DNA of 64,000 nt from Escherichia phage vB_EcoM_WFC. The stretch lies in the sequence record NC_048195.1; one strand, written 5' to 3'. Both the position numbers and the translations under genes were made by a program. Below the pieces are notes generated by a model that was not told the DNA's origin, did not search any database, and saw nothing but the letters and a program-made list of their open reading frames with translations. This document shows, one piece after another, positions 47,161 through 63,592 of the stretch; the stretch's first letter is position 1; each line of letters starts with the position of its first letter.

Positions 47161-47189
47161 GCAGGTATTGATCACCGAAGGAAAGAAAG

Positions 47190-48272
47190 ATGGCTAGTTT
47201 AAGAGAAGAAGCAAAAATAATTGAAGAGTTTTTAACAGAACTCCAAAGAGGCATTCCAGAAGATGAGCGCGTCATGACGGTGTTTGCTCCTGAAGCAACG
47301 GTACAGACCGACGAGCGCGGCAAGAAGATTAACAGCAGCTTCTGGCCTAAGCCTTGGAAGTTGGGCAAGCCGCTCATGCAGCACCAAAACGGCTATGCTT
47401 GCATCAGTTCAATGCGTAAGTCTCCCAACCCAAAGACGGGTGAGATGCGATACTGGCGTACAGAGTCTGCCTTTGGTCACGGCATGGCGATGATGGTTGA
47501 TGACATCGGTCACGGTAAAGGGTCCAAAGGTGATTTAGATTTGGAATTCTTTTTCGAGCGACTGAAGCCGACTGTCATCGTCGAGACTTCACCGAACAAC
47601 CACCAGCTTTGGTACTTCTTTAAAGAACCGATTGACCATCTTATTCAGTTCAAAGCGTTCCTTGGGTCTTTCGTTAACATGGTACTCAAGAAGGGCGGCG
47701 ACAACACGATTAAAGACGTAACGCGCGTGGGTCGTGTTCCTGGGTGCATCAATAACAAGCGTGTGACTCACGACGGCCCCTATAAATATGTCGATGAGAA
47801 CGGCGACCCGTTCCGCTGCCGACTTGTCCATGCAGACTACTCCTTGCGCTACACCATCGAAGACATTTGTCAGGCATTTGGCTTTCACGTCGTCATGCCG
47901 CAAAAGCGTGAGATTCAAATTGACGTCGATGAATACAAGTATGATGCTGTTTGGTATAAAATAGCCCAGCAGATTCTAGCGCGCAACAAGATGGGTGAAG
48001 GGTCTGATGGCGACGTCATCGAGAATATGTCAGGCAAGTGTCGCATAATCTGTCCTTGGGGTGAAGAGCACACCAACGGCGACCCGTATGGCGCTTACTT
48101 TCGCGGCCCTATCCCTGGTGCAGAACATGAATTTGTGTTCGGTTGCGCCCACGACTGCCACCGGAAAGGGGAAGGCAAGAAAGGTTGGACTGCTTTTGTT
48201 GAAGCAATCGTCATGCCTTATATTGAGAATCAACTTGACATGATAAATCGTCGTGCAGGTGGCATAAAATAG
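47190..48272 (+). CDS. DNA primase-like protein (archaeo-eukaryotic primase / Prim-Pol-like) with C-terminal Cys/His cluster
   Basis: 360 aa; acidic MMVDDIGHG and ETSPNNHQLWYFF resemble AEP motifs; C-terminal CPWGEEH ... CAHDCH zinc-binding-like cluster. Confidence 0.55.
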   Translation: MASLREEAKIIEEFLTELQRGIPEDERVMTVFAPEATVQTDERGKKINSSFWPKPWKLGKPLMQHQNGYACISSMRKSPNPKTGEMRYWRTESAFGHGMAMMVDDIGHGKGSKGDLDLEFFFERLKPTVIVETSPNNHQLWYFFKEPIDHLIQFKAFLGSFVNMVLKKGGDNTIKDVTRVGRVPGCINNKRVTHDGPYKYVDENGDPFRCRLVHADYSLRYTIEDICQAFGFHVVMPQKREIQIDVDEYKYDAVWYKIAQQILARNKMGEGSDGDVIENMSGKCRIICPWGEEHTNGDPYGAYFRGPIPGAEHEFVFGCAHDCHRKGEGKKGWTAFVEAIVMPYIENQLDMINRRAGGIK

Positions 48273-48273
48273 T

Positions 48274-48301
48274 TTGCTTTTATTTTCATAGCAACTATAA
48301 T
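48274..48301 (+). promoter_or_regulatory. sigma70-like promoter candidate
   Basis: TTGCTT (48274-48279), 16-nt spacer, TATAAT (48296-48301). Confidence 0.4.
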
Positions 48302-48330
48302 CATTTTATGAACTGAAGCAGAGGTGATTC

Positions 48331-48477
48331 ATGCAAAGCGAAGAATTGAACATCGAGGTTGAATGTCTGTTAAAGTCGTTAGAACCTAAACCAGCAGAGC
48401 TTCCGACCCTTCAAGGAGTCATGGCTCACCATCAAGCGGCTGCGGCCAAACACTACTCTGAATTTGTTAAGGAATAA
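48331..48477 (+). CDS. small hypothetical protein (48 aa)
   Basis: GAGGTG RBS before ATG 48331; below the ORF-track size cutoff. Confidence 0.35.
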   Translation: MQSEELNIEVECLLKSLEPKPAELPTLQGVMAHHQAAAAKHYSEFVKE

Positions 48478-48479
48478 AA

Positions 48480-48770
48480 ATGAACGAACCAAAAATGATG
48501 ACCGTTGAAGAAGCACAAAAGCTTCGTGTTGAAAACGAGCTTAAGCTTGTCAACCAGATTCTCCCCTTGTTTGCAGGCTACGCAGTGGAGGAAGTTGTTG
48601 GGGCAATCCTTAACGTATCCACGCATGTCGCTATGAATCTTCAGGCAGAGCGATTCAACACGCTGCTGACTATTAAAGACCTTACAGTCAGTGCAACGTT
48701 CACCGTTGAGCCAGTCAATTTTGACGAAGCTTCAGCCGCGATTCAACAGCAAAGAGATCAAGAGGTGTAG
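48480..48770 (+). CDS. hypothetical protein (96 aa)
   Basis: Co-directional early array. Confidence 0.45.
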   Translation: MNEPKMMTVEEAQKLRVENELKLVNQILPLFAGYAVEEVVGAILNVSTHVAMNLQAERFNTLLTIKDLTVSATFTVEPVNFDEASAAIQQQRDQEV

Positions 48771-48771
48771 C

Positions 48772-49035
48772 ATGGGCGCTTTCCGTAACGAGTTCACCTG
48801 GAACGTTACCAGCAATCTCTCGACTTGTCCTAACTGTGCAAGCGATGTTATCAAGGTGCGGCAGCATCGCAACGCGGAGGAAGGTGCCTGGGAAGATGGC
48901 GACCTTGTAGAGTGCCAGTGCTGTTCTCATGAAGGTGTTGTTGAGCTTCAAGCTGGCGAAGGTTGTCCACCAGCAGAACGTACAGCACGCGTTGAATGGG
49001 ATGCAACAGACTCCATTGGTGATCCTCAACAGTAA
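48772..49035 (+). CDS. small zinc-ribbon protein (87 aa)
   Basis: CPNC ... CQCC Cys pairs; ATG 48772 just after the upstream stop. Confidence 0.45.
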   Translation: MGAFRNEFTWNVTSNLSTCPNCASDVIKVRQHRNAEEGAWEDGDLVECQCCSHEGVVELQAGEGCPPAERTARVEWDATDSIGDPQQ

Positions 49036-49053
49036 ATTTAGGTATAGATACTT

Positions 49054-49158
49054 ATGAAAGCCGTAAAGAAATACACATTAATCATTTCCCTTGTCATCAT
49101 CCTGGGGCTATTATATGTATTGGATATGGCATATTATTTGGCAGGGGTGAGTGGATGA
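49054..49158 (+). CDS. small hydrophobic peptide (34 aa)
   Basis: MKAVKKYTLIISLVIILGLLYVLDMAYYLAGVSG; its stop overlaps the next start (ATGA coupling). Confidence 0.35.
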   Translation: MKAVKKYTLIISLVIILGLLYVLDMAYYLAGVSG

Positions 49159-49445
49159 ATATTGTAATTCTTTATGGTGAAAATATCAGCGATGACGACA
49201 TCGAAGTTGCCGTTGATGTTTACGGTATCGATGAGGTGAAACGTGTTGAAGAAATTAGTGGCGCAAATCTCAATGAGATTGTCAAAGAAGCTGGCTGCCC
49301 TTCGGAAGAGATTCTGGTGGTTACTAACGATGACCTGTCTTCTATGGATCATTTGCGCCGCATCTTCACCGATTGCCAATACCTTCATGCTGTTCAATCA
49401 GTAAACAAATTGAGAAAGGCATACGCCAACCAATTTCCTTGCTGA
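49155..49445 (+). CDS. hypothetical protein (96 aa)
   Basis: Co-directional early array. Confidence 0.45.
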   Translation: MNIVILYGENISDDDIEVAVDVYGIDEVKRVEEISGANLNEIVKEAGCPSEEILVVTNDDLSSMDHLRRIFTDCQYLHAVQSVNKLRKAYANQFPC

Positions 49446-49495
49446 TAGTTCACCAGTTATATTGCTTTAAATTGAGTTTTACTATATTAATATAC

Positions 49496-49520
49496 AACGC
49501 CAGATTTCTGGCGTTTATTT
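49496..49520 (+). terminator. intrinsic terminator or attenuator
   Basis: AACGCCAG ATTT CTGGCGTT hairpin followed by TTTATTT. Confidence 0.55.
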
Positions 49521-49581
49521 ACCGCACCCTGAAAGGATATATCCATGCAACAATATAACAAAGCCGTATCAGGAGGATTAA

Positions 49582-51252
49582 ATGTCAATTAATAATGACA
49601 ATCTTCCAGAGGATACAGGTGATGAATTTGGTGCAATCTTTGACGAAATTCAAGATGCAGGCGTTTCGGAAGAAATGCAGGCAGCAGAGCAGCAAGGCAC
49701 CAGAGCTAAAATCAGCCTTCAACATAAAGCTGTTGAAAAAGATTCAGAGCGCATGGAATGCTACGGTGAAGAAGACTTGGTTGAAAGAGCACGCTTGCTC
49801 GCCTCACTTCAGGTAATCAAGTTCCCTCACTACAAGCCTACCAAAGATGACTTCGTTCTACAGGCAGACCGGACGAGTGACATGAACCGTTATGCGGTTT
49901 TCGACGCGTTGTTTGATAAGGGAAGTGGCGTTGTTCCATTCCCTCACAAAGATACTTTTCGTGGGCGCTTAGTCGACCATCGCGGCGAAACATTCACTGA
50001 CCGTACCTTGGAAGTCACAGAGATAGTTGCCGCTGTCGACGCAGCAGGGTTGTCCAACCCAAACTCACGTCAGGTCGCTCAATCCTATAAGGAATGGGCC
50101 ATGCGTTATCAGCGCGACGACCTGATGGACTTCTTCTACAAGAAGCTGCCTGAATGGGACGGTACTGCGCGCATCGAGAAATACCTTATCGAGCTATTCC
50201 GACCGTTCGATACAGAGTTAAACCGACAAATCGGTGTGTATTTTTGGCTATCGCTCTACAACCGCCTGACCAACCCTGGCTGTCAAGCGCCAATCTCCAT
50301 CGCGCTCATCGGCGGCCAGAACGCAGGGAAGAGTTATTTTAGCAAGCTGCTTTGCGAAGCTATTATGAACGACCGCCACGCAACACCGATTCCGTTGAAC
50401 TTAGCCGCGCAAAACTTCAACCCGTTCTTGCGAGCTATCACGGGTCGCTCGATTATCGCGAACGTCGGCGAGATGACAGGCTTTAAAAAGGCCGACATCG
50501 AAAACATGAAAGCATTCCTGACTAAGACGGAAGATGACCTGGACTTCAAATTTGAAGATACGCAGGTTAAACCACGCCAGTGGATTGCTATCATGGACGG
50601 CAACGAATACGCAGGCATGCAGCGTGATGACACGGGCAACCGTCGTGTGTATCCTATCTTTGTTGGCCAACTCGCTGACAAGGACGGGCAACCGAACTGG
50701 TCGAAAGACTTCCAAGCTGACCTTTCCACTTTGAAAGAAGACGTTTGGCAGCTTATGGCTGAGTGCGCTGCGTGGATGGAGAAGCACGGCGAAGCAGGCT
50801 ATAACGCGTTTGTTGGTGAAACATCTCGCATGCTTACTGAGTTCAGTAAAAACGAAATGGAACGCGCTCGCGGCGTTATCCGTGATGAGATGGTTGATAA
50901 CGACCTTGTTGAAGTCGTCATCACCGCGCCTTATGACCGACATCACAGCGGACGCTGGCACATCACCAGTGGTGCTATTGCTATGGGATTCAGAGCGAAG
51001 TGCGGCAAGTCGCCTTTCTCTCGTACCCTTGCGCCACACATGTCGAAGCTTGGTTTTGAGCCTGCGACCTATCGCAACCAGCGCGGTTACTTTACGCCGC
51101 TGATTAAGAATGAAGCAGGGGAATACATTTCTGATTTGATGACCATCTTAGCGTATCTTATCCGCGATGAGTCTGACCCTGAAGATATTGAATTCTTGAA
51201 GAAGGTTATTGAGCGTAAACGTTCTTTGGGAAGAGATAAGGATGAATTCTGA
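49582..51252 (+). CDS. VirE-family P-loop NTPase (primase-associated helicase-like)
   Basis: 556 aa; Walker A IGGQNAGKS; AGGAGG RBS; position next to the primase gene. Confidence 0.7.
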   Translation: MSINNDNLPEDTGDEFGAIFDEIQDAGVSEEMQAAEQQGTRAKISLQHKAVEKDSERMECYGEEDLVERARLLASLQVIKFPHYKPTKDDFVLQADRTSDMNRYAVFDALFDKGSGVVPFPHKDTFRGRLVDHRGETFTDRTLEVTEIVAAVDAAGLSNPNSRQVAQSYKEWAMRYQRDDLMDFFYKKLPEWDGTARIEKYLIELFRPFDTELNRQIGVYFWLSLYNRLTNPGCQAPISIALIGGQNAGKSYFSKLLCEAIMNDRHATPIPLNLAAQNFNPFLRAITGRSIIANVGEMTGFKKADIENMKAFLTKTEDDLDFKFEDTQVKPRQWIAIMDGNEYAGMQRDDTGNRRVYPIFVGQLADKDGQPNWSKDFQADLSTLKEDVWQLMAECAAWMEKHGEAGYNAFVGETSRMLTEFSKNEMERARGVIRDEMVDNDLVEVVITAPYDRHHSGRWHITSGAIAMGFRAKCGKSPFSRTLAPHMSKLGFEPATYRNQRGYFTPLIKNEAGEYISDLMTILAYLIRDESDPEDIEFLKKVIERKRSLGRDKDEF

Positions 51253-51899
51253 TGAATAAAGCAATCAACATCGCTAAATTCTTTCAACATCTTGGTGAAC
51301 TGAACAAAGAGAGTGACGTTCACGGAGAAGAAATGAACCGGATGATTTCAACCGTGTTGCGTGGCTTTGGTTATGATAAGGACTCCATCACTTGCAAGCG
51401 CACAAAGCTTGTCGATGAGTCTTATCTTTACTACGTAGAGCTGCGCATTGGTAAAGATGTAATGATCATTGACCCTAAACTGGAAGGTGCGCACTGTTTT
51501 GGCGCTCATCCTCGTGCGAGTGAATTCAAGGGTCGCGGTCGCAACCGAATCCAGAAACTTGATGACGCAGGCGACTTGAACATTGCCATGTTCCTTAAAG
51601 AGTTCCTTGCGCTACCGAAGGTTGCATCATCCACTGGTCGTGATGACCCTTGCAAGATTGGATTCCGAACTAAAGATTTGCGCAATGCGCTACGCAAGAA
51701 GGGATTTGTGCCTTCTTATGACAATGTCGCCGCGCTGATGGCTTCAATGGAGGAAGCTGAAGCGATGGACAAGGTGCGCGGCTATTTCCTGAATACAGGC
51801 TTCACCATGTATGAATGGCACACGAAGGGATTGACTGTCGCCGACTTCATCTATTCATTAGAGCAGAAGTATGTACGCAATATGCAGGCCACAGGATAA
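51252..51899 (+). CDS. hypothetical protein (215 aa)
   Basis: Start overlaps the upstream stop. Confidence 0.45.
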   Translation: MNKAINIAKFFQHLGELNKESDVHGEEMNRMISTVLRGFGYDKDSITCKRTKLVDESYLYYVELRIGKDVMIIDPKLEGAHCFGAHPRASEFKGRGRNRIQKLDDAGDLNIAMFLKEFLALPKVASSTGRDDPCKIGFRTKDLRNALRKKGFVPSYDNVAALMASMEEAEAMDKVRGYFLNTGFTMYEWHTKGLTVADFIYSLEQKYVRNMQATG

Positions 51900-51938
51900 T
51901 TATCATCAAAATATTTGCTTTTCTGACGAGGTGATATT

Positions 51939-52163
51939 ATGATTAATTTAGACAGGATTGAGTTAGCACTTAGTACCTTAATCAAATATTACCAGTTTGC
52001 GTTTAAGGCTAGTTTGTTTGGCTTGTTCAATCCTCATCAAGCAGCAAAGGCGAGAAGCAATGCCAACCGCCTGCGCTGTACTGGTATAGTTATCCATGAC
52101 CGGATATTGACAGAGGGTAGATTCAGCCATGAATACACAGGGGAGAATAACAAATCAACGTAG
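51939..52163 (+). CDS. hypothetical protein (74 aa)
   Basis: GAGGTG RBS; early array. Confidence 0.4.
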   Translation: MINLDRIELALSTLIKYYQFAFKASLFGLFNPHQAAKARSNANRLRCTGIVIHDRILTEGRFSHEYTGENNKST

Positions 52164-52338
52164 GGCTTTACAAGTCCTCATCCACTACCTGTCACGCCTT
52201 TATCCAACGGCGCACGAGCAGAATCCAGCAACTGGTCATCTGTTTAAGCGCCGTAACCTTTCGCTAAAAACATTCGCTTTAATCCAATATGACCGCTACC
52301 TGGACGGGCGCTACTGCGGCCCGAAGGATTCTCTATGA
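52129..52338 (+). CDS. hypothetical protein (69 aa)
   Basis: Early array; overlaps upstream ORF by 35 nt, so the start is uncertain. Confidence 0.35.
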   Translation: MNTQGRITNQRRALQVLIHYLSRLYPTAHEQNPATGHLFKRRNLSLKTFALIQYDRYLDGRYCGPKDSL

Positions 52339-52613
52339 TTAATACATACAAAGTATTCTTTGTCAAGTGCACATCATCTATTGATGACCAATTTACTGCT
52401 GGCAAGAATTATCCCGTGATTTCTGAGTCAAGGCTAGATATAATCTTGAATGATCATGAAATCTATGAGCCGATGCCAGCGACTGCGTTTGATGTTATCG
52501 GTCACGTTCGGATTAAGACTAATGTTGATACGATGCATGATCCGTTGTTCAAGAAGCAAATCAAGAATGCCATGCAAGACTTTTGCGCGGCTATGTTTAA
52601 ATATTATAAGTGA
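52335..52613 (+). CDS. hypothetical protein (92 aa)
   Basis: ATGA start/stop coupling with the upstream ORF. Confidence 0.45.
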   Translation: MINTYKVFFVKCTSSIDDQFTAGKNYPVISESRLDIILNDHEIYEPMPATAFDVIGHVRIKTNVDTMHDPLFKKQIKNAMQDFCAAMFKYYK

Positions 52614-52620
52614 GTTGAAG

Positions 52621-52842
52621 ATGAGCAAGAAAACCCTTAAGGCTGGCGACCGTATCCGTTGGATGTCAGGACAGAATATGCGCGCAGGCACCATCCTTGA
52701 GCTGGATGAATACCTTACCGATTCGCGCGGTCGCAATCATTACCGTGTCAGAATCGATACAGTAAAAGAAGATGACAAGTCACTTGTTGGTGAAGTGGTC
52801 ATCGTTACTCCACGTCAAATCAAGGCGGCTTGTGAAGCATGA
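52621..52842 (+). CDS. hypothetical protein (73 aa)
   Basis: Internal ATG 52621 chosen because the ORF-track start would lie inside the previous gene. Confidence 0.4.
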   Translation: MSKKTLKAGDRIRWMSGQNMRAGTILELDEYLTDSRGRNHYRVRIDTVKEDDKSLVGEVVIVTPRQIKAACEA

Positions 52843-52994
52843 ATAAATTTCAGTTCAACGATAACAAGATCAGTAAAGCAGACGCAATCAAGCAGCTTCG
52901 TCGCGTACTTGAAGCCAGTGGCCATACGAAAGAGCGTGCACGCGTCTTGGCCAAAGAACATTATAAACGTTTTGTGTCACAAATCAGAGGTTAA
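52839..52994 (+). CDS. small hypothetical protein (51 aa)
   Basis: ATGA coupling with the upstream stop; below the ORF-track cutoff. Confidence 0.35.
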   Translation: MNKFQFNDNKISKADAIKQLRRVLEASGHTKERARVLAKEHYKRFVSQIRG

Positions 52995-52996
52995 TT

Positions 52997-53491
52997 ATGA
53001 TCATCCATCGCCCTTTAATGTTAAAGAAAGAAGAGTGTGAAGAAATCTTACACGCATTGAGACGTGCAGAAGCAGATGTTAACCTTCGAATAAAGGTAAG
53101 AGACTTCATTATGAAGCAGTTCGAAAATGATGATGTTGACTATGCCATTGATGAATTGCTGAATCGCAACGTCAAAGGCGCAACAAGACCCATTTGCCAT
53201 CAATCACGTTGCGCAAGAGTCCCTATTCAAAATTATGTTCATAAAAAGCCGCGCCTTAAACCTGTTCCGGCTGATAAAATAGAAGTCGGTGATGTTATCG
53301 TCTGCGTCTATTACGGCAGTCAGATTTTCAATGCCGTTGTGGTAAGGCGATACAGCATAAACGGTTGCCAATACATGGAAGTGACAAACGCAAAGAAAGA
53401 ACCTGGCAGCTTGAACGTGGCTTACGCATTAAGGGAATTCAGCAGTCCTTCTTGCATTCTTTATAAGGTACTCGACCATGGCTCATGTTAA
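52997..53491 (+). CDS. hypothetical protein (164 aa)
   Basis: Early array. Confidence 0.45.
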   Translation: MIIHRPLMLKKEECEEILHALRRAEADVNLRIKVRDFIMKQFENDDVDYAIDELLNRNVKGATRPICHQSRCARVPIQNYVHKKPRLKPVPADKIEVGDVIVCVYYGSQIFNAVVVRRYSINGCQYMEVTNAKKEPGSLNVAYALREFSSPSCILYKVLDHGSC

Positions 53492-53825
53492 AGACGAAGT
53501 GCTGTTTGGCGCAGAGATTAAGAAACGTGTCAGAGAAATGGCAGGAGAAGAAAGAATGAAGCCGTTGCGAAAAGGTTTTGATCACATCAATGGCGTATCC
53601 GGCACGAAGGAGATGGGCGTGTTGGTGAAAGACATCCGCGTTGGCGATGTCATGGTCATCGACCGACAAGCGCGAGTCGTTATCCAGGTGCAACCTAACG
53701 ATGATGAAGGATGTGTCCTATTGAAGCTGAAGAAGCTTTCATCCAGCCCAGCGAAAGCAGTCATCAAGAAGGTGTGGCCTGAAGGATTACGCAAACTCAT
53801 CCGTCGACCCGTGGAGAATGCATGA
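53478..53825 (+). CDS. hypothetical protein (115 aa)
   Basis: Early array. Confidence 0.45.
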   Translation: MAHVKDEVLFGAEIKKRVREMAGEERMKPLRKGFDHINGVSGTKEMGVLVKDIRVGDVMVIDRQARVVIQVQPNDDEGCVLLKLKKLSSSPAKAVIKKVWPEGLRKLIRRPVENA

Positions 53826-54061
53826 TGGAAGATTATATTAACGCGATGTATATGGCATTCTATGTCGTGCAACTTCCCAATGGCGCGGTATTTTATGGCG
53901 AGTATACCTTTGACGTTCAATACGACGTTTCAGAGCGTACAGTGTTGACAAGGGAGTTGATTGCGGACCTTAAGGACGACATCAAACGCGTCGCGCGGCA
54001 GCAGTTCAATTTGGATGACACAGTCATCGTTCGAATTACCGGAATAACAGAGGTGCAGTGA
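53822..54061 (+). CDS. hypothetical protein (79 aa)
   Basis: Start/stop overlap with neighbours. Confidence 0.45.
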   Translation: MMEDYINAMYMAFYVVQLPNGAVFYGEYTFDVQYDVSERTVLTRELIADLKDDIKRVARQQFNLDDTVIVRITGITEVQ

Positions 54062-54390
54062 TGACCCGTGATCAGATACTCGCCGCGCATGAGCGTGAGA
54101 AGGTGAAAGAGATTTGTAAAAGGCACAAATCATTTGCTGACTCTTATGTGTTCTTAAAGTCTTGCATCAAACAAAACGCAAGGATGGATAACACTGTATT
54201 GACATTCAACCTTTTGTCTAACGGAGCAAAGCTTGATGCGATATGCGGGTGCAGAATTGCCAGCATGACGTTTGAACGAGGTGCTCACAAAGACTCTTTC
54301 TTCTATCAATTCTCCCATCGGACGGGTGATACAAAGATAACAAGGACGCGGCACGAGATAGAGATTGACCTGCTCCACTATGTAAAATGA
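54058..54390 (+). CDS. hypothetical protein (110 aa)
   Basis: Start/stop overlap with neighbours. Confidence 0.45.
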   Translation: MMTRDQILAAHEREKVKEICKRHKSFADSYVFLKSCIKQNARMDNTVLTFNLLSNGAKLDAICGCRIASMTFERGAHKDSFFYQFSHRTGDTKITRTRHEIEIDLLHYVK

Positions 54391-54408
54391 ATATCAAAAA
54401 GGTGATTT

Positions 54409-54603
54409 ATGAGTGTTAAACTAGACATACAGAAAACCCTTGACAAAGCTGCTGCAATAAAGAACTTCATGGATTGTTACGCCAGTTGCACGCTTTATGG
54501 AAGCGTTCCAAACGGTGATGTGAGACCGGAAAGCATGCTTGAGTGGCTTGTTGAGCACCGTTACATAATCGACATAGTTGATGAATACATAAAGCAGAAA
54601 TGA
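54409..54603 (+). CDS. hypothetical protein (64 aa)
   Basis: AAGGTGA RBS before the ATG. Confidence 0.45.
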   Translation: MSVKLDIQKTLDKAAAIKNFMDCYASCTLYGSVPNGDVRPESMLEWLVEHRYIIDIVDEYIKQK

Positions 54604-54611
54604 ATATCAAA

Positions 54612-54656
54612 AAGGTGAGCTAAATGCTTGCCTTTTCTTTTATCAATACTTATACT
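54612..54656 (+). promoter_or_regulatory. hairpin-plus-promoter cassette (copy 1)
   Basis: Hairpin AAGGTGAGC/TAAAT/GCTTGCCTT (54612-54634) with T-run; TTGCCT (54628-54633), 17-nt spacer, TATACT (54651-54656). Confidence 0.45.
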
Positions 54657-54688
54657 CTTTTCATCAAGACGAACAAGTGAGGTGAATT

Positions 54689-55006
54689 ATGATTTACTTA
54701 GGAATGGACGAAGATGCGCACAAAGACCTTTCAAGGGTGCCAAACGTTAAGTTAGACACAGCTGTACACATCAAGCCTTGGCCAATCGCCCACCCTGACG
54801 TAGTTGTACCAGTCGCGCCTGGCACGCGTTACGTGGCCATTGATGACGACGGAGTAATTCACTGTTATTCGGAAAAACCAAAGTATATAAAGCAATATCA
54901 CGGTTGGTTTTTGGACGAGCGTGCAATGGCGCGTTACTGCGGCGAAGTCGGTCTGGAAGGTTGGAGCTTCAAGGCTAGTGAATCGTGTGTCGAGGTGCAA
55001 TTATGA
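54689..55006 (+). CDS. hypothetical protein (105 aa)
   Basis: GTGAGGTGA RBS; early array. Confidence 0.45.
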   Translation: MIYLGMDEDAHKDLSRVPNVKLDTAVHIKPWPIAHPDVVVPVAPGTRYVAIDDDGVIHCYSEKPKYIKQYHGWFLDERAMARYCGEVGLEGWSFKASESCVEVQL

Positions 55007-55221
55007 ATGCCGCGCTGGGTAAGTTGTCTTTCAATAAACGCAACGAGCTGCGCATGGTGTCGCGCTTTCAACAAACGTATTCATCACTAATAAAGATTAC
55101 AAATAAGGCCGACTCTAGAGCTTGCCCTAAAGAAGAATGGGAAGCATTGAACGAGCGTCGTAAACAATTACAACATGCTGCATTCAAGCTGCAGCAATAT
55201 GCTATGGAGTATGCAAAATGA
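55003..55221 (+). CDS. hypothetical protein (72 aa)
   Basis: ATG 55003 preceded by GAGGTG. Confidence 0.4.
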   Translation: MNAALGKLSFNKRNELRMVSRFQQTYSSLIKITNKADSRACPKEEWEALNERRKQLQHAAFKLQQYAMEYAK

Positions 55222-55502
55222 AGATGCAAAGATGTCCCCATTGCTTGTCCACGATGCGGCTTACTGCTGAAGAATATTTACATCACGTTAACGTTTGTGA
55301 GGCTAATCCTGAAAACTCGACGCGTTACTATTATCATTATCACGCAGAAGCGGAAGATGGATCAGGCGCAACAGGCATCGTCACCACTAAAGAAATGGTG
55401 ATAACTAAAAAGGCATATGAAAGCTTGCTGGAGACGATTAAAGAAGTTTCTGGCAAAGAAATCACCTGTATTAAATCTTTATCTTTCTTGCACGAGGTAT
55501 AA
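55218..55502 (+). CDS. small Cys/His zinc-finger-like protein (paralog a)
   Basis: 94 aa; N-terminus MKMQRCPHCLSTMRLTAEEYLHHVNVCEANPENS. Confidence 0.45.
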   Translation: MKMQRCPHCLSTMRLTAEEYLHHVNVCEANPENSTRYYYHYHAEAEDGSGATGIVTTKEMVITKKAYESLLETIKEVSGKEITCIKSLSFLHEV

Positions 55503-55503
55503 A

Positions 55504-55887
55504 ATGAGAATGAAGCGTTGCCCTTACTGCCACGATGTGGTGCACCTTCCACACGAAGAGTTTGTGCACCACATGACTAACTGTGATAAGAATCCTAATA
55601 GCGAAAGCCAACTTGAAGAAAGAATGTTCTTGGTGTCATTCAAAGCTTCTGCTTATGAAGTGCAACGTTCTTACGGCGCACCAAGTACGATTTACTGTCC
55701 AACAACATTGAGAAGCGACATCGACTCAATTCAGCTTGCGGCCTGGATTAACGTTAAGGAAGGAATCACGCCGCACTTTATTGCGCGCATCCAATCTCAG
55801 ATTCTACAAATCAAGCGCGAATACAACCGTGACATCACTGAAGTGAAGGTGTTGTCTATCACACCGATGAATAAGGAGTTGCCGTGA
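55504..55887 (+). CDS. small Cys/His zinc-finger-like protein (paralog b)
   Basis: 127 aa from ATG 55504; N-terminus MRMKRCPYCHDVVHLPHEEFVHHMTNCDKNPNSES matches the adjacent paralog. Confidence 0.45.
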   Translation: MRMKRCPYCHDVVHLPHEEFVHHMTNCDKNPNSESQLEERMFLVSFKASAYEVQRSYGAPSTIYCPTTLRSDIDSIQLAAWINVKEGITPHFIARIQSQILQIKREYNRDITEVKVLSITPMNKELP

Positions 55888-56144
55888 ACAAGGGTCCGAT
55901 GACTAAGTTAGCCGTTGCCGCGCGGAAGCTTCGACAAGCCGTTAATGGGTCGCGGCCCGTGGTGTTAACACTCGACGATGCAAAGGCACTGGTAGAGCTA
56001 CTCGACGAGCACAACCGACGCAAGAATCTGGAGAACACATTACGCTGGCGCGTTACTCCGAAAGGGCGGGAGAGCGAGAAGAAAGCTTACTTGCGACGCA
56101 AACTAAGGTCAGTCGGCCTCCACGAAGAGGCGAAGAATATTTAA
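55884..56144 (+). CDS. hypothetical protein (86 aa)
   Basis: GTG start preceded by AAGGAG. Confidence 0.4.
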   Translation: MNKGPMTKLAVAARKLRQAVNGSRPVVLTLDDAKALVELLDEHNRRKNLENTLRWRVTPKGRESEKKAYLRRKLRSVGLHEEAKNI

Positions 56145-56150
56145 TTCAAA

Positions 56151-56194
56151 AAGGTGAGCTAAATGCTTGCCTTTTTATTTGCCTGTATTATACT
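56151..56194 (+). promoter_or_regulatory. hairpin-plus-promoter cassette (copy 2)
   Basis: Same hairpin as copy 1 (56151-56173); TTGCCT (56167-56172), 16-nt spacer, TATACT (56189-56194). Confidence 0.45.
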
Positions 56195-56215
56195 TAGTTC
56201 ATCAAGCAAAGGAGA

Positions 56216-56524
56216 ATGATTATGAGTTACGACGAAAGGTTTGGCAGAAGCGGATTATTTCATGACGCTGTACACAAAGACAGCAAAGATGTTGTCTGCG
56301 CATTCAAGGTTGATTCTTACGGTACACTGAAACCTTTTAAGGTCGGCGAAACATACAAGCTGTTTCACGGCTGGTTGACGCGTCGCAACAACTTGCCTGA
56401 CATGGAAGTCTGGTGGATAGAATACAAGGGTCAGGCTCATCGTTGCAAGGTTGTAGAGGTGCGCGGCGTGGAATACTATCAATCTGTTATCAGCGGCTTT
56501 GTTTTTAAAGAGGGTGAGCTATGA
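56216..56524 (+). CDS. hypothetical protein (102 aa)
   Basis: AAGGAG RBS; early array. Confidence 0.45.
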   Translation: MIMSYDERFGRSGLFHDAVHKDSKDVVCAFKVDSYGTLKPFKVGETYKLFHGWLTRRNNLPDMEVWWIEYKGQAHRCKVVEVRGVEYYQSVISGFVFKEGEL

Positions 56525-56826
56525 GTACAGAAGCGATGAAGAAAAAGATTTTGAACGCTTTGCAAGAAGCCGTGAACTGTGGTGCAATTAAAACCTTTAC
56601 TGAAAGGCAAGTCGGTGAGGTGACGGTGCACGGATTCAATAATAACAAAAACGGAATTGCTGCCATAATGCTGTTGAAGAACAGCGATGACACATTCATC
56701 ATTTACGTCGGCGGATATGAGCTTATCGTTGATGATTTGTTCATCACTTGCGCTGACGGCCTTAACCCAATGTTAACGTTCGAGCGGCGCGGCATCCGTG
56801 TTGCAACGTTTGGAGGGAAGTTATGA
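56521..56826 (+). CDS. hypothetical protein (101 aa)
   Basis: AGGGTGAG RBS; N-terminal AVNCGAI segment shared with the 57004 protein. Confidence 0.45.
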   Translation: MSTEAMKKKILNALQEAVNCGAIKTFTERQVGEVTVHGFNNNKNGIAAIMLLKNSDDTFIIYVGGYELIVDDLFITCADGLNPMLTFERRGIRVATFGGKL

Positions 56827-56987
56827 CATCAAATCTTAAAGCCCGTTTATTATTCATCAAGCCGCATGTGCCGTATAAGATTAGTAAGCGCACCTGGCTT
56901 AACATTTACAACCGCAGCGGCGACCGTTGTTTGTACAAGGCAAAGCGGCGCAAGAAGGTATATTCTTACACAACATCAATCAAATAA
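56823..56987 (+). CDS. small basic protein (54 aa)
   Basis: ATGA coupling with the upstream stop; Lys/Arg-rich. Confidence 0.35.
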   Translation: MTSNLKARLLFIKPHVPYKISKRTWLNIYNRSGDRCLYKAKRRKKVYSYTTSIK

Positions 56988-57003
56988 ATAGGATAAGACA
57001 ACA

Positions 57004-57507
57004 ATGAAAATCGAACAACTCGAAGCAGTACTGGAAATGGCTGTAAAGGCTGGCGCAATCAGAAGCTATAGCCGCGAGAAGTCGGAAAACGATATGGTGT
57101 TTTGTCGCAACTTCTATATCGTCGGCAACCTTAACGACCACTACACCATCGAGTGGTATATTAACATGATGACGCTTAAGTCGCGCACCATGGAGCTTTG
57201 GTGCGATGACATTTGCTTATCCAACACCCATCCATCCTACGACGTTGCATTGGCATTCTATTACGGAAGCCGTCAACCTGTCGCCCACATCGGTGAGAAG
57301 CATGAGCATCTTAAGGCGCGACCAGAGGAATCAATGGAAGGCTGGATTGAATGGGCTGGAGGAAAGAATCCGGTGCCTGGTAAGAAGGTCATGTTGATGT
57401 GGAGGAATGAAGAAAAGTCGTCGTATTCGTCCAATTCAGAGGGATGGCTATGGCATCACAACGGAAGCGTTTATGACATCATAAAGTATCGCGTCGTGGA
57501 GGAATGA
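57004..57507 (+). CDS. hypothetical protein (167 aa) with C-terminal WxGGxNPVPGK module
   Basis: C-terminal EGWIEWAGGKNPVPGKKV ... YRVVEE shared with the 58791 protein. Confidence 0.45.
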   Translation: MKIEQLEAVLEMAVKAGAIRSYSREKSENDMVFCRNFYIVGNLNDHYTIEWYINMMTLKSRTMELWCDDICLSNTHPSYDVALAFYYGSRQPVAHIGEKHEHLKARPEESMEGWIEWAGGKNPVPGKKVMLMWRNEEKSSYSSNSEGWLWHHNGSVYDIIKYRVVEE

Positions 57508-57848
57508 TGGAAGAACAAGAAGGCCGTGAGCTGACATTCGATGAACAGATGGCCGAACTTCAGCGCACATCGCCGCTGCGCGGTAAGGTTGTTGACATTG
57601 AGGCGAGCGAATCCAATCTCACCAAGTGGCGGCTCAAGTGCACCAGCACAAGCAAGGATATGTTAAGCTTCAAAGTCGGTCAGACTTATTTGCTTTATGA
57701 GGCAAAAGGACTTATTATTGATGGAAGGCAAATTGTCTTCACGGTTGTCAACGGCATGCGTTGGTTCGTGAAGCGTGATGTCGAGGGACGTGACATGTTT
57801 GTCGCAGGCTTTCCAGAAGCAAGATTCCAATTGGAGAAGGTTAAATGA
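57504..57848 (+). CDS. hypothetical protein (114 aa)
   Basis: Start overlaps the upstream stop. Confidence 0.45.
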   Translation: MMEEQEGRELTFDEQMAELQRTSPLRGKVVDIEASESNLTKWRLKCTSTSKDMLSFKVGQTYLLYEAKGLIIDGRQIVFTVVNGMRWFVKRDVEGRDMFVAGFPEARFQLEKVK

Positions 57849-58171
57849 AATTGAAATGGTACGTGGACCCTGAGCCGACAGGCTCATACAGGTCATTCCA
57901 ACGTCGCGGCTGGCCGATTTGTTACAGCGGCAATCCCGATAAAGAAGACTGCGAGATGATCGCCGCGATAGTAAGTCTTAACCATGACGGCTATGAAGGC
58001 CACTACGCGAGAGCAACCAACCTTCGGCTCAAGGTGCGCATCCATTTCAAGGTCGCAGGCAAGGACCGCACCGGACTCTCCAAGGAAGAGTTCAGCAGCA
58101 TTGCCGAAGCAAAGGCATGGCTCAAGGCATTCTACAAGGCCAATCCTAAATTTTATCCAGTCAAGGAATAA
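57845..58171 (+). CDS. hypothetical protein (108 aa)
   Basis: Start overlaps the upstream stop. Confidence 0.45.
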   Translation: MKLKWYVDPEPTGSYRSFQRRGWPICYSGNPDKEDCEMIAAIVSLNHDGYEGHYARATNLRLKVRIHFKVAGKDRTGLSKEEFSSIAEAKAWLKAFYKANPKFYPVKE

Positions 58172-58174
58172 GTG

Positions 58175-58579
58175 ATGAATCAACATAAAGAACGTTTAGA
58201 AGAACTGGTGCGCGGCGAGCTTTACGGCGGCGATGACTCACTGTTCAAGTTAAGCGATGCGGTTGTCAACGAGTACGTGCACGGACTGGTCGACCCGCAA
58301 GGCCGTTTCCCTTATCCGCGAGATTACTGCAACGACATCACAGCAGCTTGGCCCGTGATGCTTGCCAATGATGTCAGCGTCGTGCGAAACTGCGGCAACA
58401 AAGAACCAAACCGTGACTACTCGGCTTACGTCGCGTTGGACGCCATGGACATTGCATCATTTAAATGCAGCGGCAGCCACGACAACCCGTTACGCGCCGC
58501 TATGCATGTAATCATTAAGTTGCACGTGAGCAAGGGCGAAGGTGCAGTGGCAACCGTTTATGAGAAGGTGAAATTATGA
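58175..58579 (+). CDS. hypothetical protein (134 aa)
   Basis: First ATG taken (ORF track starts at GTG 58172). Confidence 0.45.
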   Translation: MNQHKERLEELVRGELYGGDDSLFKLSDAVVNEYVHGLVDPQGRFPYPRDYCNDITAAWPVMLANDVSVVRNCGNKEPNRDYSAYVALDAMDIASFKCSGSHDNPLRAAMHVIIKLHVSKGEGAVATVYEKVKL

Positions 58580-58794
58580 CCGATAAACAATACGCAGTCG
58601 GGCAACGTGACATCGAGCAACTCGACGAGGGCGGCTATTATACTCGCCACATCTATGCAATGACGCATGAAGGACTCTACAGCAAGTCGGACATTGCCGC
58701 TGAACTGGCCCATCGTGACTTGCAAATTGACCTTCTCAAGATAGAAGTGCAAAACTTACGCAACACCCTGTTAAATACCTGGAGCTTAAAATGA
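58576..58794 (+). CDS. hypothetical protein (72 aa)
   Basis: GAAGGTG RBS. Confidence 0.45.
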   Translation: MTDKQYAVGQRDIEQLDEGGYYTRHIYAMTHEGLYSKSDIAAELAHRDLQIDLLKIEVQNLRNTLLNTWSLK

Positions 58795-59192
58795 TCAATC
58801 GATTTAACTGCATCGTCAACAAGGGGATGGCGGTCAATGAGGATGGTCCTTGGATTCACTATGAGGACTATGAATCACTGCTCAAGCTTAATGAGTCGCT
58901 AACAAAAGAGATTGAGCAATACCGCGAGCGCATCAAAGCCGCTGAAGATGTTATCAAGCTTTTTAGCGAGGCTGTTGAGAAATACAAGGAGCGCAACGTA
59001 CCGATTAAGGAGGAAGCGTGGACCGTGTGGTTTGGTGGTGAGAATCCGGTGCCTGGGAAGATGGTTGAGTTTGAATTACTCAACGGTTATAAATCAAAAG
59101 GTGCTGTTCCTTCGGATAGTTTGACATGGGATAAAGTCACAAGCCCGACTGGTGCAAAGATTGTTGCTTATCGGGTCGTTAAGGAGGGGTGA
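58791..59192 (+). CDS. hypothetical protein (133 aa) with C-terminal WxGGxNPVPGK module
   Basis: GGAG RBS; C-terminal WTVWFGGENPVPGKMV ... YRVVKEG. Confidence 0.45.
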   Translation: MINRFNCIVNKGMAVNEDGPWIHYEDYESLLKLNESLTKEIEQYRERIKAAEDVIKLFSEAVEKYKERNVPIKEEAWTVWFGGENPVPGKMVEFELLNGYKSKGAVPSDSLTWDKVTSPTGAKIVAYRVVKEG

Positions 59193-59725
59193 TGGGTAAC
59201 GATGCAGGATGGGGCAAGCCGCGATACTCAAAACTTGCCCACTACTTTGACAACGGCGAGCAAATCAGCTTGTGCGGTAAATTCAACAAAGGCAATACAG
59301 AGTTGACCGATGCTCAAGAAATGGAATCAAGTTTTACAATTGGTGATTGCTCTAAGTGCAGAAAGGCATTATATGAGTTATTAACTCTAAGGGGATTGAA
59401 AGCGGCAAAATCAAGGGATGAATGGGTCATCAACGTCTGTGAAGGGAATCCAGAATTAATGGATGAATTGCTGAAAACAGATGCCGTTAATGCCATTTTT
59501 AAAAGGCATTATAAAACTTGTATGCGTTACAAGATGAATGATAATATTATTTTTATGGTATTATCTTATTCAAGGAGCACAATGGACGTCAAAAAGCTTC
59601 GACAATATCGTCACAAGGTAATGTGTGAATTGCGCCGTTTAGGAGTGACTGTTGATAATAATGTCATTAAAACGGAGTTAAAGAAGCGTGATAAAAGGAA
59701 TGGTGACTGGAAGGTCAGCAGATAA
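59192..59725 (+). CDS. hypothetical protein (177 aa)
   Basis: AAGGAGG RBS; last gene of the early array. Confidence 0.45.
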   Translation: MGNDAGWGKPRYSKLAHYFDNGEQISLCGKFNKGNTELTDAQEMESSFTIGDCSKCRKALYELLTLRGLKAAKSRDEWVINVCEGNPELMDELLKTDAVNAIFKRHYKTCMRYKMNDNIIFMVLSYSRSTMDVKKLRQYRHKVMCELRRLGVTVDNNVIKTELKKRDKRNGDWKVSR

Positions 59726-60017: not shown

Positions 60018-60347
60018 GCGTATCATGGCTGCAGGCCGCGCCGTTCCTGGATTCCTATTTTCAAAAGTGGTACACCCTTACGTCATGATACGTCATGGTT
60101 TTCTATCCGTAAGAGTGTACAGCCCTTGCCGCGCCTGGCTTGTACATTAATCTTACGGATGATACGGATAAAACTGAGCATCGTTATATATAGAATTCGA
60201 AAAATTAATTAACTCCATTTTAAAAACATTTATATTAATTTTTTTCATATCCTCATACTTATGTTAATTTATATATTTAACGTATTATCCGTAAGATATA
60301 AGTAAAAACAAAGACTTGCGGCAATACGGATGATACGTCATGATACG
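60018..60347. repeat. iteron-like TACGGATGATACG repeats flanking an AT-rich core (region B)
   Basis: CGTCATGATACGTCATG (about 60080-60097), CTTACGGATGATACGGATA (60152-60170), ATCCGTAAG copies near 60104 and 60287, AATACGGATGATACGTCATGATACG (60323-60347); AT-rich core 60180-60280. Confidence 0.6.
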
Positions 60348-60541: not shown

Positions 60542-60561
60542 TCACACTATTAATTTGCACT

Positions 60562-61050
60562 ATGGGATTTTGCACTATGAGTCAAGATTATGTAGCGATG
60601 CCTGAAGACTTTGAAGACCCGCGATTCGCAGAGCACAATCAGGCTTTATTCGATGAGTTCATTGACCTTGTTATTCAGGGCCATGACATGCGCGCAGCTT
60701 TTGCACTAGTATTTGGAATGGAAGTTGCAACGGATAACTACACTGGCCAGCGAATCCTTTGCACGCAACGCAATCCATACTACAAGATGCGCTTCAAAAA
60801 GCGTATGGAAGAGATGCCACTCAAGGATTTGTGGAGCGTAAAAGGTGCAATTCACAATTTGGTCAAGCTTGTGCGTGATCCAGAAGTCGCGGCGTCAGCC
60901 AAGCTTAATGCTATTCGTGAACTGAATATCATCTACGGCATCACGATGATTGATGAAAACGGCAATAGTAAAATGGGCCGTTCCATGGACGATTTCTACA
61001 AGGATTTCGGAGAGGCGGCCAAAGAAGGCGAGCAATTTTCCCGCCACTAG
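60562..61050 (+). CDS. putative terminase small subunit (HTH-type)
   Basis: 162 aa; GHDMRAAFALVFGME ... QRILCTQRNPYYKMRFKKRMEE and later KLNAIRELNIIYGI resemble small-terminase patterns from memory; alternative ATG at 60577. Confidence 0.45.
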   Translation: MGFCTMSQDYVAMPEDFEDPRFAEHNQALFDEFIDLVIQGHDMRAAFALVFGMEVATDNYTGQRILCTQRNPYYKMRFKKRMEEMPLKDLWSVKGAIHNLVKLVRDPEVAASAKLNAIRELNIIYGITMIDENGNSKMGRSMDDFYKDFGEAAKEGEQFSRH

Positions 61051-61052
61051 CC

Positions 61053-61448
61053 AATTTGCACTATAAAACGGCCCTAGAACACATTTTCTCCACTTCTAGG
61101 GCCATCGGTAATACGACGGGGAAGGTTGCAACCATAAACGCGTTAGAAAGTGTATTATTATAAGTCATCTTTTAGTCACTTTACGTAACAATTTACGACC
61201 TTCAACCGTCCAATCGAACGACTCCACCAGCAGATTCGCACTATAACCTAAGACGATGCGCCCTTTCTCGTTATCGACCCGCCAACAAGTCTCGAATAGC
61301 ATTCGATTTGCACTATTAACTATTGCCGCAACTCGCGTAGGATAAGCGCAATTTGCACTATGGTCGTAAAGGGATAAGGTGCGACCACTTCCGATGGACA
61401 ACGTAGCGATGAGAATAAGCGTATTCATAAGCCACCAATTTGCACTAT
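61053..61448 (+). repeat. array of same-orientation (A)ATTTGCACTAT motifs
   Basis: Copies at 61053-61064, 61233-61244 (TTCGCACTAT variant), 61305-61316, 61350-61361, 61437-61448; further copies at 60552-60563, 60569-60578, 61734-61745, 61748-61759, 62021-62032. Confidence 0.6.
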
Positions 61449-61478
61449 GAAAAGCGACCCCGAAGGGCCGCCATTCGA

Positions 61479-62105
61479 TTAGATAATCTGGAAGGTATAG
61501 GACTTGTTGCCGAACTCGAAGTTCAAGCGTCCAGCTTCTTTAAGCTTCATGCGGAAGCGAATGTGCTTGCTATCCGGTAAGCCCAGCGCGGCGAACGCTA
61601 CGCGGACCGATTTGAACTCGCCTACACCCTCGACCATAACGCCGTTACGGGTAAGACGCTTTTGCGCCACTTCCTTATTATCCCAACTTTTTGCAATGCC
61701 TTCGCTATTCGAACGGCGATGGGAAGGAGTTCCATTTTGCACTACGCAATTTGCACTATCGTTTAAACCGCTCTTAACGAAGGCTTCATACTCTTCGTCG
61801 GTCATCGCGTCGAGTTCTTCCTGCGTCGGCTCGGCCTTTTTAACGACCGCACGCGCCTTATGCGTTTTTACATCGCTGGACACTTCCTCGCGAGACTTCG
61901 CGTCGGGGATGGGCGATTCGTTGGACGGCTCATCGAGCGCGTTTAAGGACTCGATTAACGCTATTACGCGAGTCTCGGCGGTCCGGCGGTCCGCAAATTT
62001 TTTAATCGGCTTCGAACCGGAATTTGCATTATAAAATGCAACGAGGTCGGCGGTCTTAGTTGCGATAACGTCGCCGCTAGTCGAGAAACGATTTAAGCTA
62101 ACCAT
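61479..62105 (-). CDS. hypothetical protein (208 aa)
   Basis: Minus-strand ORF in the CpG-rich block; second gene of an operon driven from about 62570. Confidence 0.45.
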   Translation of the reverse strand: MVSLNRFSTSGDVIATKTADLVAFYNANSGSKPIKKFADRRTAETRVIALIESLNALDEPSNESPIPDAKSREEVSSDVKTHKARAVVKKAEPTQEELDAMTDEEYEAFVKSGLNDSANCVVQNGTPSHRRSNSEGIAKSWDNKEVAQKRLTRNGVMVEGVGEFKSVRVAFAALGLPDSKHIRFRMKLKEAGRLNFEFGNKSYTFQII

Positions 62106-62596: not shown

Positions 62597-62640
62597 GCAC
62601 TTTTTCGATAAAAATGCGATAAATTATTTTATCTTTTTTC

Positions 62641-62668
62641 TTTACTTCTTCGTACACTCGCGTATACT
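62641..62668 (+). promoter_or_regulatory. sigma70-like promoter (family copy 2)
   Basis: TTTACT (62641-62646), 16-nt spacer TCTTCGTACACTCGCG, TATACT (62663-62668). Confidence 0.5.
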
Positions 62669-62724
62669 TGTTTATATCGAGACGGGCGATGGCCCTTTCT
62701 TCTACTAGCATCGGGAGCTTTATT

Positions 62725-63027: not shown

Positions 63028-63039
63028 CGAAAAAAGTGC

Positions 63040-63068
63040 TTTACTTCTTCGTACACTAAGACTATAAT
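63040..63068 (+). promoter_or_regulatory. sigma70-like promoter (family copy 3)
   Basis: AAAAAGTGC TTTACT (63040-63045), 17-nt spacer TCTTCGTACACTAAGAC, TATAAT (63063-63068). Confidence 0.5.
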
Positions 63069-63135
63069 GTTTTATATCGAGAGGGGATGAGGTAGCGAAT
63101 AGGTCGCTACCCTCCCGACTAACTAGGAGAATATT

Positions 63136-63470: not shown

Positions 63471-63592
63471 TCGTCCCTATCTCGATGCGCTTCTCCGCGA
63501 AAACTCCTTTATCCTTCCCTTCGTCGTCGCATAATCTTCGTCGAGATGCGCCTTAGTTCGCATAACAGGTATTACGTTAAATGGAGAACATC

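Follow-up and report, generated by a model that had tools for sequence, protein, structure and literature searches.

Which element separates the genes within the long plus-strand array of Escherichia phage vB_EcoM_WFC? The question is raised by two intergenic gaps in a stretch of 64,000 nucleotides (nt) of this phage (sequence record NC_048195.1), which as a whole is termed the window and to which all positions refer unless stated otherwise. Both gaps carry the same compact cassette, a hairpin followed by promoter-like hexamers. A first, sequence-only reading of the window had taken it for a combined terminator or attenuator and restart promoter that splits an early region into separately tunable units. 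Here we examined the anatomy, folding and conservation of the cassettes. Very probably, each copy is an intrinsic (Rho-independent) terminator fused with a sigma-70-type promoter which reuses the terminator DNA. The best match of the window was phage vB_EcoM_WFH (93.8% identity over 95% of a 4-kb query; WFH below), and the relatives of the region are Escherichia phages of the genus Wifcevirus, i.e. myoviruses of 66-72 kb.

How far does the repeat extend? Cassette 1 fills the whole gap at 54604-54688 (plus strand), from the stop codon of the open reading frame (ORF) 54409-54603 to the ATG of ORF 54689-55006. Cassette 2 fills the gap at 56145-56221 (plus strand), from the stop codon of ORF 55884-56144 to a likely ATG at 56222. 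The latter start agrees with the WFH annotation, and some relatives have no ATG at 56216. The preceding stop codons are TGA (54601-54603) and TAA (56142-56144), and the shared sequence begins 3-6 nt later. At the 3' side the cassettes are limited by the Shine-Dalgarno (SD) sequence and ATG of the next gene (54689 and 56222); in cassette 1 the SD GAGGTGA (54679-54685) and the ATG at 54689 make up a plus-strand start region at 54679-54691 for the first gene of a presumptive second unit. The longest exact run common to both copies is the 30-mer TCAAAAAGGTGAGCTAAATGCTTGCCTTTT (54607-54636 and 56146-56175), and 33 of 35 positions are identical between 54607-54641 and 56146-56180. The 25-mer AAGGTGAGCTAAATGCTTGCCTTTT was present exactly twice, at 54612-54636 and 56151-56175, both on the plus strand; none of 100 shuffles matched this. 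The whole alignable cassette comprises about 62 nt with 84% identity between the copies. A duplicated element of about 45 nt, as originally estimated, thus was roughly the right size. The hairpin, the hexamer TTGCCT, the sequence (T)TATACT and a block TTCATCAAG (54660-54668 in cassette 1, 56198-56206 in cassette 2; plus strand) are identical in both copies. The 16/17-nt spacer, the 3 nt after the -10 hexamer and the leader have diverged.

A profile search of the window with the cassette returned only these two copies of the cassette sequence. A weak third profile match (E 0.025) at 47104-47161 coincides with the head promoter of the plus-strand array; there, GTGAACTAAATGG resembles GTGAGCTAAATGC of the cassette. 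This match may be a trace of a common origin with the cassettes.

The first half of the cassette has the anatomy of a terminator. In copy 1 (54609-54641, plus strand) an A-tract (54609-54613) runs into the 5' arm AAGGTGAGC (54612-54620), followed by the loop TAAAT (54621-54625), the 3' arm GCTTGCCTT (54626-54634) and the U-run TTTTCTTTT (54633-54641). In copy 2 (56148-56180, plus strand) the same parts are located at 56148-56152 (A-tract), 56151-56159 (5' arm), 56160-56164 (loop), 56165-56173 (3' arm) and 56172-56180 (U-run, TTTTTATTT). A hairpin with a T-run had been noticed from the letters; the pairing of AAGGTGAGC with GCTTGCCTT across TAAAT was indeed the minimum-energy fold, and the U-run follows it. 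The stem has 9 bp, or 11-12 bp with an A/U extension, a loop of 5 nt and two adjacent G.U pairs. Stem and loop lie within the ranges usual for intrinsic terminators, about 5-14 bp and 3-8 nt, respectively. The free energy (dG) amounted to -14.2 kcal/mol in copy 1 and -14.7 kcal/mol in copy 2 (z -4.6 in a 51-nt context), and none of 200 shuffles was as stable. The 7-bp core by itself contributes -8.7 kcal/mol, or -11.2 kcal/mol together with the AA/UU pairs. On the minus strand both G.U pairs become A.C and the core falls to -3.2 kcal/mol. The hairpin is therefore specific for the sense RNA. U occupies eight of the nine nt following the stem. The stem begins 5-8 nt past the stop codons and is oriented with the upstream gene.

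In the GenBank record of WFH "terminator" features are placed on exactly GGTGAGC...GCTTGCC at both orthologous sites, and ARNold is among the tools listed in the WFH paper (PMC6563267). The terminator half has thus been annotated publicly before. In our terminator scan copy 1 was reported and copy 2 was missed because the A/T extension of its stem uses up the T-run. A search of Rfam yielded a single match, MicX, with 21 bits against a gathering score of 75; it was treated as a chance match.

Is the second half a promoter? In cassette 1 (54628-54656, plus strand) the -35 hexamer TTGCCT (54628-54633) lies within the 3' arm and is separated by a 17-nt spacer from the -10 hexamer TATACT (54651-54656). 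In cassette 2 (56167-56194, plus strand) TTGCCT (56167-56172) is followed after 16 nt by TATACT (56189-56194). The hexamers and their distance of 16-17 nt were as originally described, and the spacers fall within the 16-18 nt usual for sigma-70 promoters. With a sigma-70 weight matrix the cassette promoters ranked 17th (cassette 1) and 37th (cassette 2) among about 128,000 positions. Transcripts are predicted to start at an A of the TTCATCAAG block, i.e. at 54663, 7 nt after the -10 hexamer, in cassette 1 and at 56201 in cassette 2.

More telling is the distribution of the pattern TTGCYT-N16/17-TATAMT, which was found at nine sites in the window where 0.08 would be expected. Each of the nine is located in an intergenic gap and precedes, by 21-38 nt, an SD and ATG of its own strand. 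Two of them are the cassettes (54628 and 56167, both plus strand). The others are located at 748 (minus), 3084 (plus, at the portal/minor head protein gene), 7819 (plus, at the head maturation protease gene), 22181 (plus), 43388 (minus), 47096 (minus) and 48274 (plus). The sites are kept in WFH in the part of its genome that was compared. A consistent feature of the family is a C at position 4 of the -35 hexamer, which is unusual for sigma-70 promoters. Because all nine sites are intergenic and face genes, we assign the promoter half to a genome-wide family of sigma-70-like promoters. The recurrence of TTGCCT near 7819, ahead of what was called a scaffold gene, had been pointed out before. The promoter sequence does exist (TTGCCT-17-TATAAT, 7819-7847, 23 nt upstream of ORF 7871); the gene assignment needs correction, as the matches of ORF 7871 are to head maturation protease families, not to a plain scaffold. 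Since the family also precedes structural genes, i.e. portal and head protease, its presence does not mark the array as "early". Nothing similar to TTCATCAAG was seen in the other seven family members.

Two family promoters carry structures of their own. At 22181-22235 (plus strand) and 43388-43335 (minus strand) perfect inverted repeats of 13-14 bp bracket the -10 hexamer (fold z -5.1 and -2.0, respectively). The 3' arm at 22181 includes the SD of the next gene, and neither repeat is followed by a U-run. They could be operators or SD traps specific for read-through transcripts.

Next, the cassettes were compared across the genus. A 69-nt cassette query found two places in each of the 27 Wifcevirus records with 97-100% identity; the flanking genes are 77-97% identical among relatives. 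The cassette forms an island of 93-100% identity amid divergent patches. These patches start about 15-20 nt inside the gene after cassette 1, the protein of which is 64-71% identical in most relatives, and they assort independently among the genomes. In an alignment of 13 genomes 13 of 87 columns varied in cassette 1; for the coding sequence on its flanks the count was 235 of 587 (p=2e-6). In cassette 2, 9 of 79 columns varied compared with 76 of 290 in its upstream flank (p=0.006). With 38 copies, taken from 19 genomes, the conservation could be resolved to individual nucleotides. No change was seen in either stem arm, in TTGCCT, in TATACT or in TTCATCAAG. The only variable parts are the spacer, the leader, the loop (TAAAT, TAAGT or TATAT), the A-tract, with a length of 4-6, and the base triplet behind the -10 hexamer, which has seven forms; in the U-runs TTTTCTTTT and TTTTTATTT one position is changed, in one genome each. 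This is the pattern expected if the stem, both hexamers and the start region are the parts under selection. With a stem that is the same in every copy, covariation gives no evidence on the fold in either direction.

Beyond the genus the cassette was elusive. Scanning IMG/VR with the exact pattern for distant copies gave only three near-identical Wifcevirus contigs, and a protein-anchored scan returned the same three. A metagenome scan with TATACTNNNTTCATCAAG gave unrelated chance matches, and the hairpin was present in none among the matches listed. Neither the PLSDB plasmids nor 5,426 E. coli genomes contained a match. Two matches in Asteriusvirus, a jumbo phage (38 nt, 87%), were rejected: there, a generic perfect terminator, AAAAAGGAGAGC-TTAA-TGCTCTCCTTTT, is located between convergent genes. 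This resemblance is convergence, not homology.

How might the cassette work? A polymerase arriving from upstream, e.g. from the head promoter of the plus-strand array at 47133 (TTGACT-16-TATACT), would pass the stop codon and transcribe the hairpin of 9-11 bp with its tandem G.U pairs. At the run of eight U in nine nt most transcripts would be released, around 54636-54645 in cassette 1 or 56175-56184 in cassette 2. In the DNA the 3' arm reads as the -35 hexamer TTGCCT, and the T-run is the first half of the 16/17-nt spacer to TATACT; the host holoenzyme could therefore start afresh on the same DNA. It would do so about 25 nt downstream at the A of TTCATCAAG (approximately 54663 and 56201), and the new transcripts would carry a leader of 20-26 nt with a strong SD. 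Accordingly divided, the array would consist of three units, 47190-54603, 54689-56144 and 56222-59725, each with its own promoter and insulated from read-through. We infer termination and initiation, their efficiencies and the exact 3' and 5' ends from the architecture of the DNA. On these grounds the proposal of a combined terminator and restart promoter is strengthened by the strand-specific fold, the WFH annotation, the nine-site promoter family and the invariance of 38 copies. Sequence and comparative evidence likewise favor a splitting of the plus-strand array into units. Regulated attenuation is not indicated because upstream of the A-tract nothing that could act as an anti-terminator partner in an alternative structure is conserved between the copies or among insertion variants.

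Several points weigh against this assignment. The core of the hairpin is only moderately stable (-8.7 kcal/mol, four G-C pairs). Termination may thus be partial and some read-through is plausible. The cassette promoters agree with the sigma-70 consensus in just 9 of 12 positions, and a generic consensus scan was not enriched (37 sites compared with 29 expected). As generic promoter and terminator scans did not exceed shuffles, they are not evidence on their own; the significance comes from the exact repeat, its conservation and the promoter family. The invariance of the stem could in part be due to the constraint which the -35 hexamer imposes on the 3' arm. A literature search found no mapped transcript starts or ends for any Wifcevirus. 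Finally, the invariance of TTCATCAAG and of the tandem G.U pairs is beyond what a plain terminator plus promoter explains. The invariant 5' arm, with the weaker tandem G.U pairing, reads as the usual SD of this phage (AGGTGA), and a fully paired version never occurs.

Would a terminator alone suffice? Then TTGCCT and TATACT would be by-products of an AT-rich spacer, and the downstream genes would be served by read-through. This would be in line with the WFH record, which annotates terminators alone, and with the fact that 9/12 matches to the consensus are common. It does not account for nine exact family sites where 0.08 are expected, all of them correctly placed. Furthermore, all 38 copies have TATACT even though its neighbors vary, 2-3 nt on the 5' side and 3 nt on the 3' side, and the two window copies keep hexamers and spacing despite diverged spacer sequences. 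We regard this explanation as improbable. A stable stem-loop directly past a stop codon might as well be a processing site or a 3'-end stabilizer within a polycistronic transcript, i.e. an RNase target or an exonuclease barrier, and terminated and processed 3' ends are inseparable by sequence alone. Yet a short stem of 9-11 bp which lacks an internal loop and leads into a canonical U-run is typical of an intrinsic terminator and not of an RNase III site. The same anatomy is labelled "terminator" in the WFH record. Such a role is quite improbable. As the inverted repeat overlaps the -35 hexamer, a protein might bind it as a DNA palindrome, an operator which represses or activates the promoter. 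The perfect 13-14-bp inverted repeats around the -10 hexamers of the family promoters at 22181 (plus) and 43388 (minus) would fit this view. In the cassettes, however, only 7 of 9 positions of the repeat match at the DNA level, and the two that do not are exactly those which form G.U pairs in the transcribed sense. The U-run after the repeat and the place directly past a stop codon suit a terminator. Thus, an operator appears very improbable.

The cassette might also encode something. The 5' arm reads as a typical SD (AAGGTGA). Every one of the 38 copies has an ATG or a GTG in the loop, even where the loop is TAAGT or TATAT. A small ORF, or an N-terminally extended version of the next protein, could begin here. 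In the window such an ORF would be 18 codons long in each copy; in 15 of 19 genomes that of copy 2 continues in frame into the next gene, and in Bas101, kaset and AV128 the downstream coding sequence (CDS) is annotated from the loop ATG. Against this, the frame in which TATACT and TTCATCAAG would be read differs between the two copies; therefore, conservation is not at the protein level. In copy 1 the lengths are 18, 21, 22, 26, 36 and 41 codons, and in copy 2 the ORF has 18 codons or is fused to the next gene. The copies have only the first four residues in common, and SD and start codon are buried in the hairpin. We consider such an ORF extremely improbable. CDSs which were publicly annotated across cassettes (L009, 2490-2582; L013, 2497-2589; L011, 3774-4085; L140, 3783-4139; L142, 3774-4136; coordinates of these records) are probably gene-caller artefacts. 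The 30-amino acid (aa) ORFs annotated over cassette 1 in Bas98 and Bas99 were dismissed as spurious because the frame is broken in the window and in most relatives.

A different question is whether the cassette serves in addition as a joint for gene exchange. In T4-like phages promoter-early stem-loops (PeSLs) are documented as acting in this way (PMC2839356; PMC4122927). The cassette could be conserved chiefly as a patch of homology, or of SD-like microhomology, at which small genes are inserted, deleted or, when phages co-infect a cell, exchanged. Such a linker role is compatible with the terminator and promoter functions and may add to them rather than replace them. One case is in the window itself. 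The 64-aa ORF 54409-54603 (plus strand) is inserted at the 5' arm of cassette 1 and is flanked by an exact 21-nt direct repeat, AAATGAATATCAAAAAGGTGA. The upstream copy at 54385-54405 (plus strand) is identical to 54598-54618 and comprises the stop codon and the A-tract together with AAGGTGA, the initial 7 nt of the 5' arm. In this half-cassette the arm is followed by TTTATG and is used as the SD of the ORF; therefore, no hairpin is formed there. Among Wifcevirus the ORF is present only in the window, Bas100, F13 and SP13. Homologs exist in unrelated siphophages, i.e. Kagunavirus ST20 (74% identity) and Yersinia phage vB_YenS_P400 (41%). Together with the occurrence in just four Wifcevirus genomes, this makes a horizontal acquisition probable. 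Next, a block of three genes in RCIP0319 has its left junction, GGTGAGGTAAATATG, at the 5' arm of cassette 2, and behind the block a full cassette is regenerated. In Bas101 cassette 2 is followed by an additional gene between repeats of the SD segment of the cassette, EC150 and CWP003 have an extra gene directly after cassette 1, and four alternative first genes were found after cassette 2. In total, at least five indel (insertion/deletion) or replacement events between close relatives end within cassettes. The location of the cassette as a 93-100% identical island between independently assorting patches points in the same direction, as does the neighborhood of genes without known function.

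Other observations argue against a linker. Indels are found at almost every gene junction of the region. From 52.0 to 58.5 kb 20 breakpoint clusters were counted; just 5 are in cassettes, which represent about 3 of 27 junctions, and the binomial estimate of p ~0.06 is suggestive only. There are two copies per genome compared with about 50 PeSLs in RB49 or phi1. The segment between the copies is never deleted; each of the 27 records has both. The junction sequence is not shared by the siphophage homologs of the 64-aa ORF. A specific donor junction for this ORF was thus discarded, as the SD region differs in the homologs of Kagunavirus ST20 and Yersinia phage P400. Because the excess of breakpoints is weak and the inter-copy segment is not lost, we rate the linker role as a tentative possibility which falls somewhat short of even. 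It is rather doubtful that the cassette is a PeSL-like mobile linker outside the T4 lineage in which the 5' arm AAGGTGA together with the start codon in the loop constitutes a ready-made ribosome-binding site. If so, foreign genes entering at the arm might be translated at once from the half-arm, and a full terminator-promoter would be regenerated behind them. Two independent insertions show just this arrangement, the 64-aa ORF (window, Bas100, F13, SP13) and the three-gene block of RCIP0319. A role in ribosome binding could be the reason for the invariant arm with its weaker tandem G.U pairing.

How does the terminator-promoter cassette relate to known systems? PeSLs were described in the T4-like phages RB49, phi1, PST and nt-1 (Arbiol et al., 2010, PMC2839356; Comeau et al., 2014, PMC4122927). 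By definition they unite a sigma-70-like promoter with a stem-loop terminator in a short intergenic stretch that extends from a stop codon to the SD/ATG of the next gene (PMC2839356), just as the cassettes do, and in one PeSL subclass the stem-loop overlaps the -35 box. Further similarities are the repetition in a region rich in small genes of unknown function and the insertions, deletions and replacements between close relatives which end inside the cassette. The differences are equally clear. Wifcevirus is not T4-like and sequence similarity is absent. Two cassettes plus two other promoter/stem-loop composites compare with about 50 PeSLs per genome. The Wifcevirus stem is AAGGTGAGC/GCTTGCCTT, whereas PeSL stems are of a G-run/C-run type. 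The enrichment of breakpoints at Wifcevirus cassettes is suggestive only. For PeSLs promoter, terminator and mini-circle activities are experimental, whereas the promoter and terminator of the cassette are predicted. The cassette would work like a PeSL, and like other terminator-promoter junctions in phages which rely on the host polymerase; it is not a PeSL by descent.

As an intrinsic terminator of E. coli or its phages (ARNold type) the cassette is conventional in its stem of 9-11 bp, the 5-nt loop, U in 8 of 9 positions, the upstream A-tract and the sense orientation after a stop codon. It differs in a relatively AT-rich stem with tandem G.U pairs (core -8.7 kcal/mol), and in the double use of its parts, with the -35 hexamer in the 3' arm and the proximal spacer in the U-run. 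In the Pbunavirus 14-1 26 sigma-70-like promoters and 14 terminators were mapped genome-wide by ONT-cappable-seq (Putzeys et al., 2024, PMC10914365). Both phages have host-type promoters across replication, structural and small-gene regions. The -35 flavor is TTGCYT in Wifcevirus versus TTGACA in 14-1, and the Wifcevirus sites are predicted whereas those of 14-1 are mapped. Lambdoid morons are likewise transcriptionally autonomous units of accessory genes bounded by a promoter and a terminator. In contrast, the cassette fuses promoter and terminator in one repeat between units, and the boundaries of morons are not conserved repeats (PMC2839356).

No description was found in the literature of the duplication, the promoter half and its family or the joint-like behavior; these appear to be new. 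For the annotation of Wifcevirus the data propose a concrete transcription map with three units and a nine-site TTGCYT promoter family. For synthetic biology the cassette would be a compact insulator-plus-promoter part of 56 nt. Should the linker role be true, gene shuffling of the PeSL type would not be peculiar to T4-like phages. As such, the cassette is an ordinary kind of phage control element and current understanding is not overturned.

What is the setting of the cassettes? Phages of the genus Wifcevirus have been used against O157 and extended-spectrum beta-lactamase (ESBL) E. coli, and unusually fast replication was reported. The genus is rarely studied and is a distant relative of Pbunavirus (PMC11990801). 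Both cassettes are inside a 12.5-kb run of plus-strand genes from 47190 to about 59725. The first genes match DNA primase and primase/helicase families, and about 30 small ORFs follow. Nine ORFs around the cassettes had no Pfam match and at most a PHROG of unknown function. A gene for an RNA polymerase was not noticed in the window. Between the cassettes, ORFs 55218-55502 and 55504-55887 are small tandem paralogs with an N-terminal CPxC...H motif (MKMQRCPHC and MRMKRCPYC, respectively). ORF 55218-55502 is missing in 12 of 18 relatives.

Other repeats were encountered elsewhere in the window. Upstream of the head protease gene, at 7540-7760, repeats of GATACGGAT with a 9-nt period are inverted around a very AT-rich core. 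A related segment of about 110 nt is located near 60.2 kb (60152-60300). Six matches were found compared with none expected, and the repeats resemble iterons or binding sites of a factor. The motif CAATTTGCACTAT occurs about six times within 1.2 kb at 60549-61762. Duplicated promoter blocks of the type CTTTACTTCTTCGTACACT...TATAMT...TTTATATCGAGA are found 400 nt apart at 62640-62686 and 63039-63086. Finally, a 25-nt repeat at a spacing of 52 nt is located at 63591-63667 and a tandem 45-mer at 63774-63863, near the end of the window. Possibly, the repeats near the window end constitute a terminal-repeat region.

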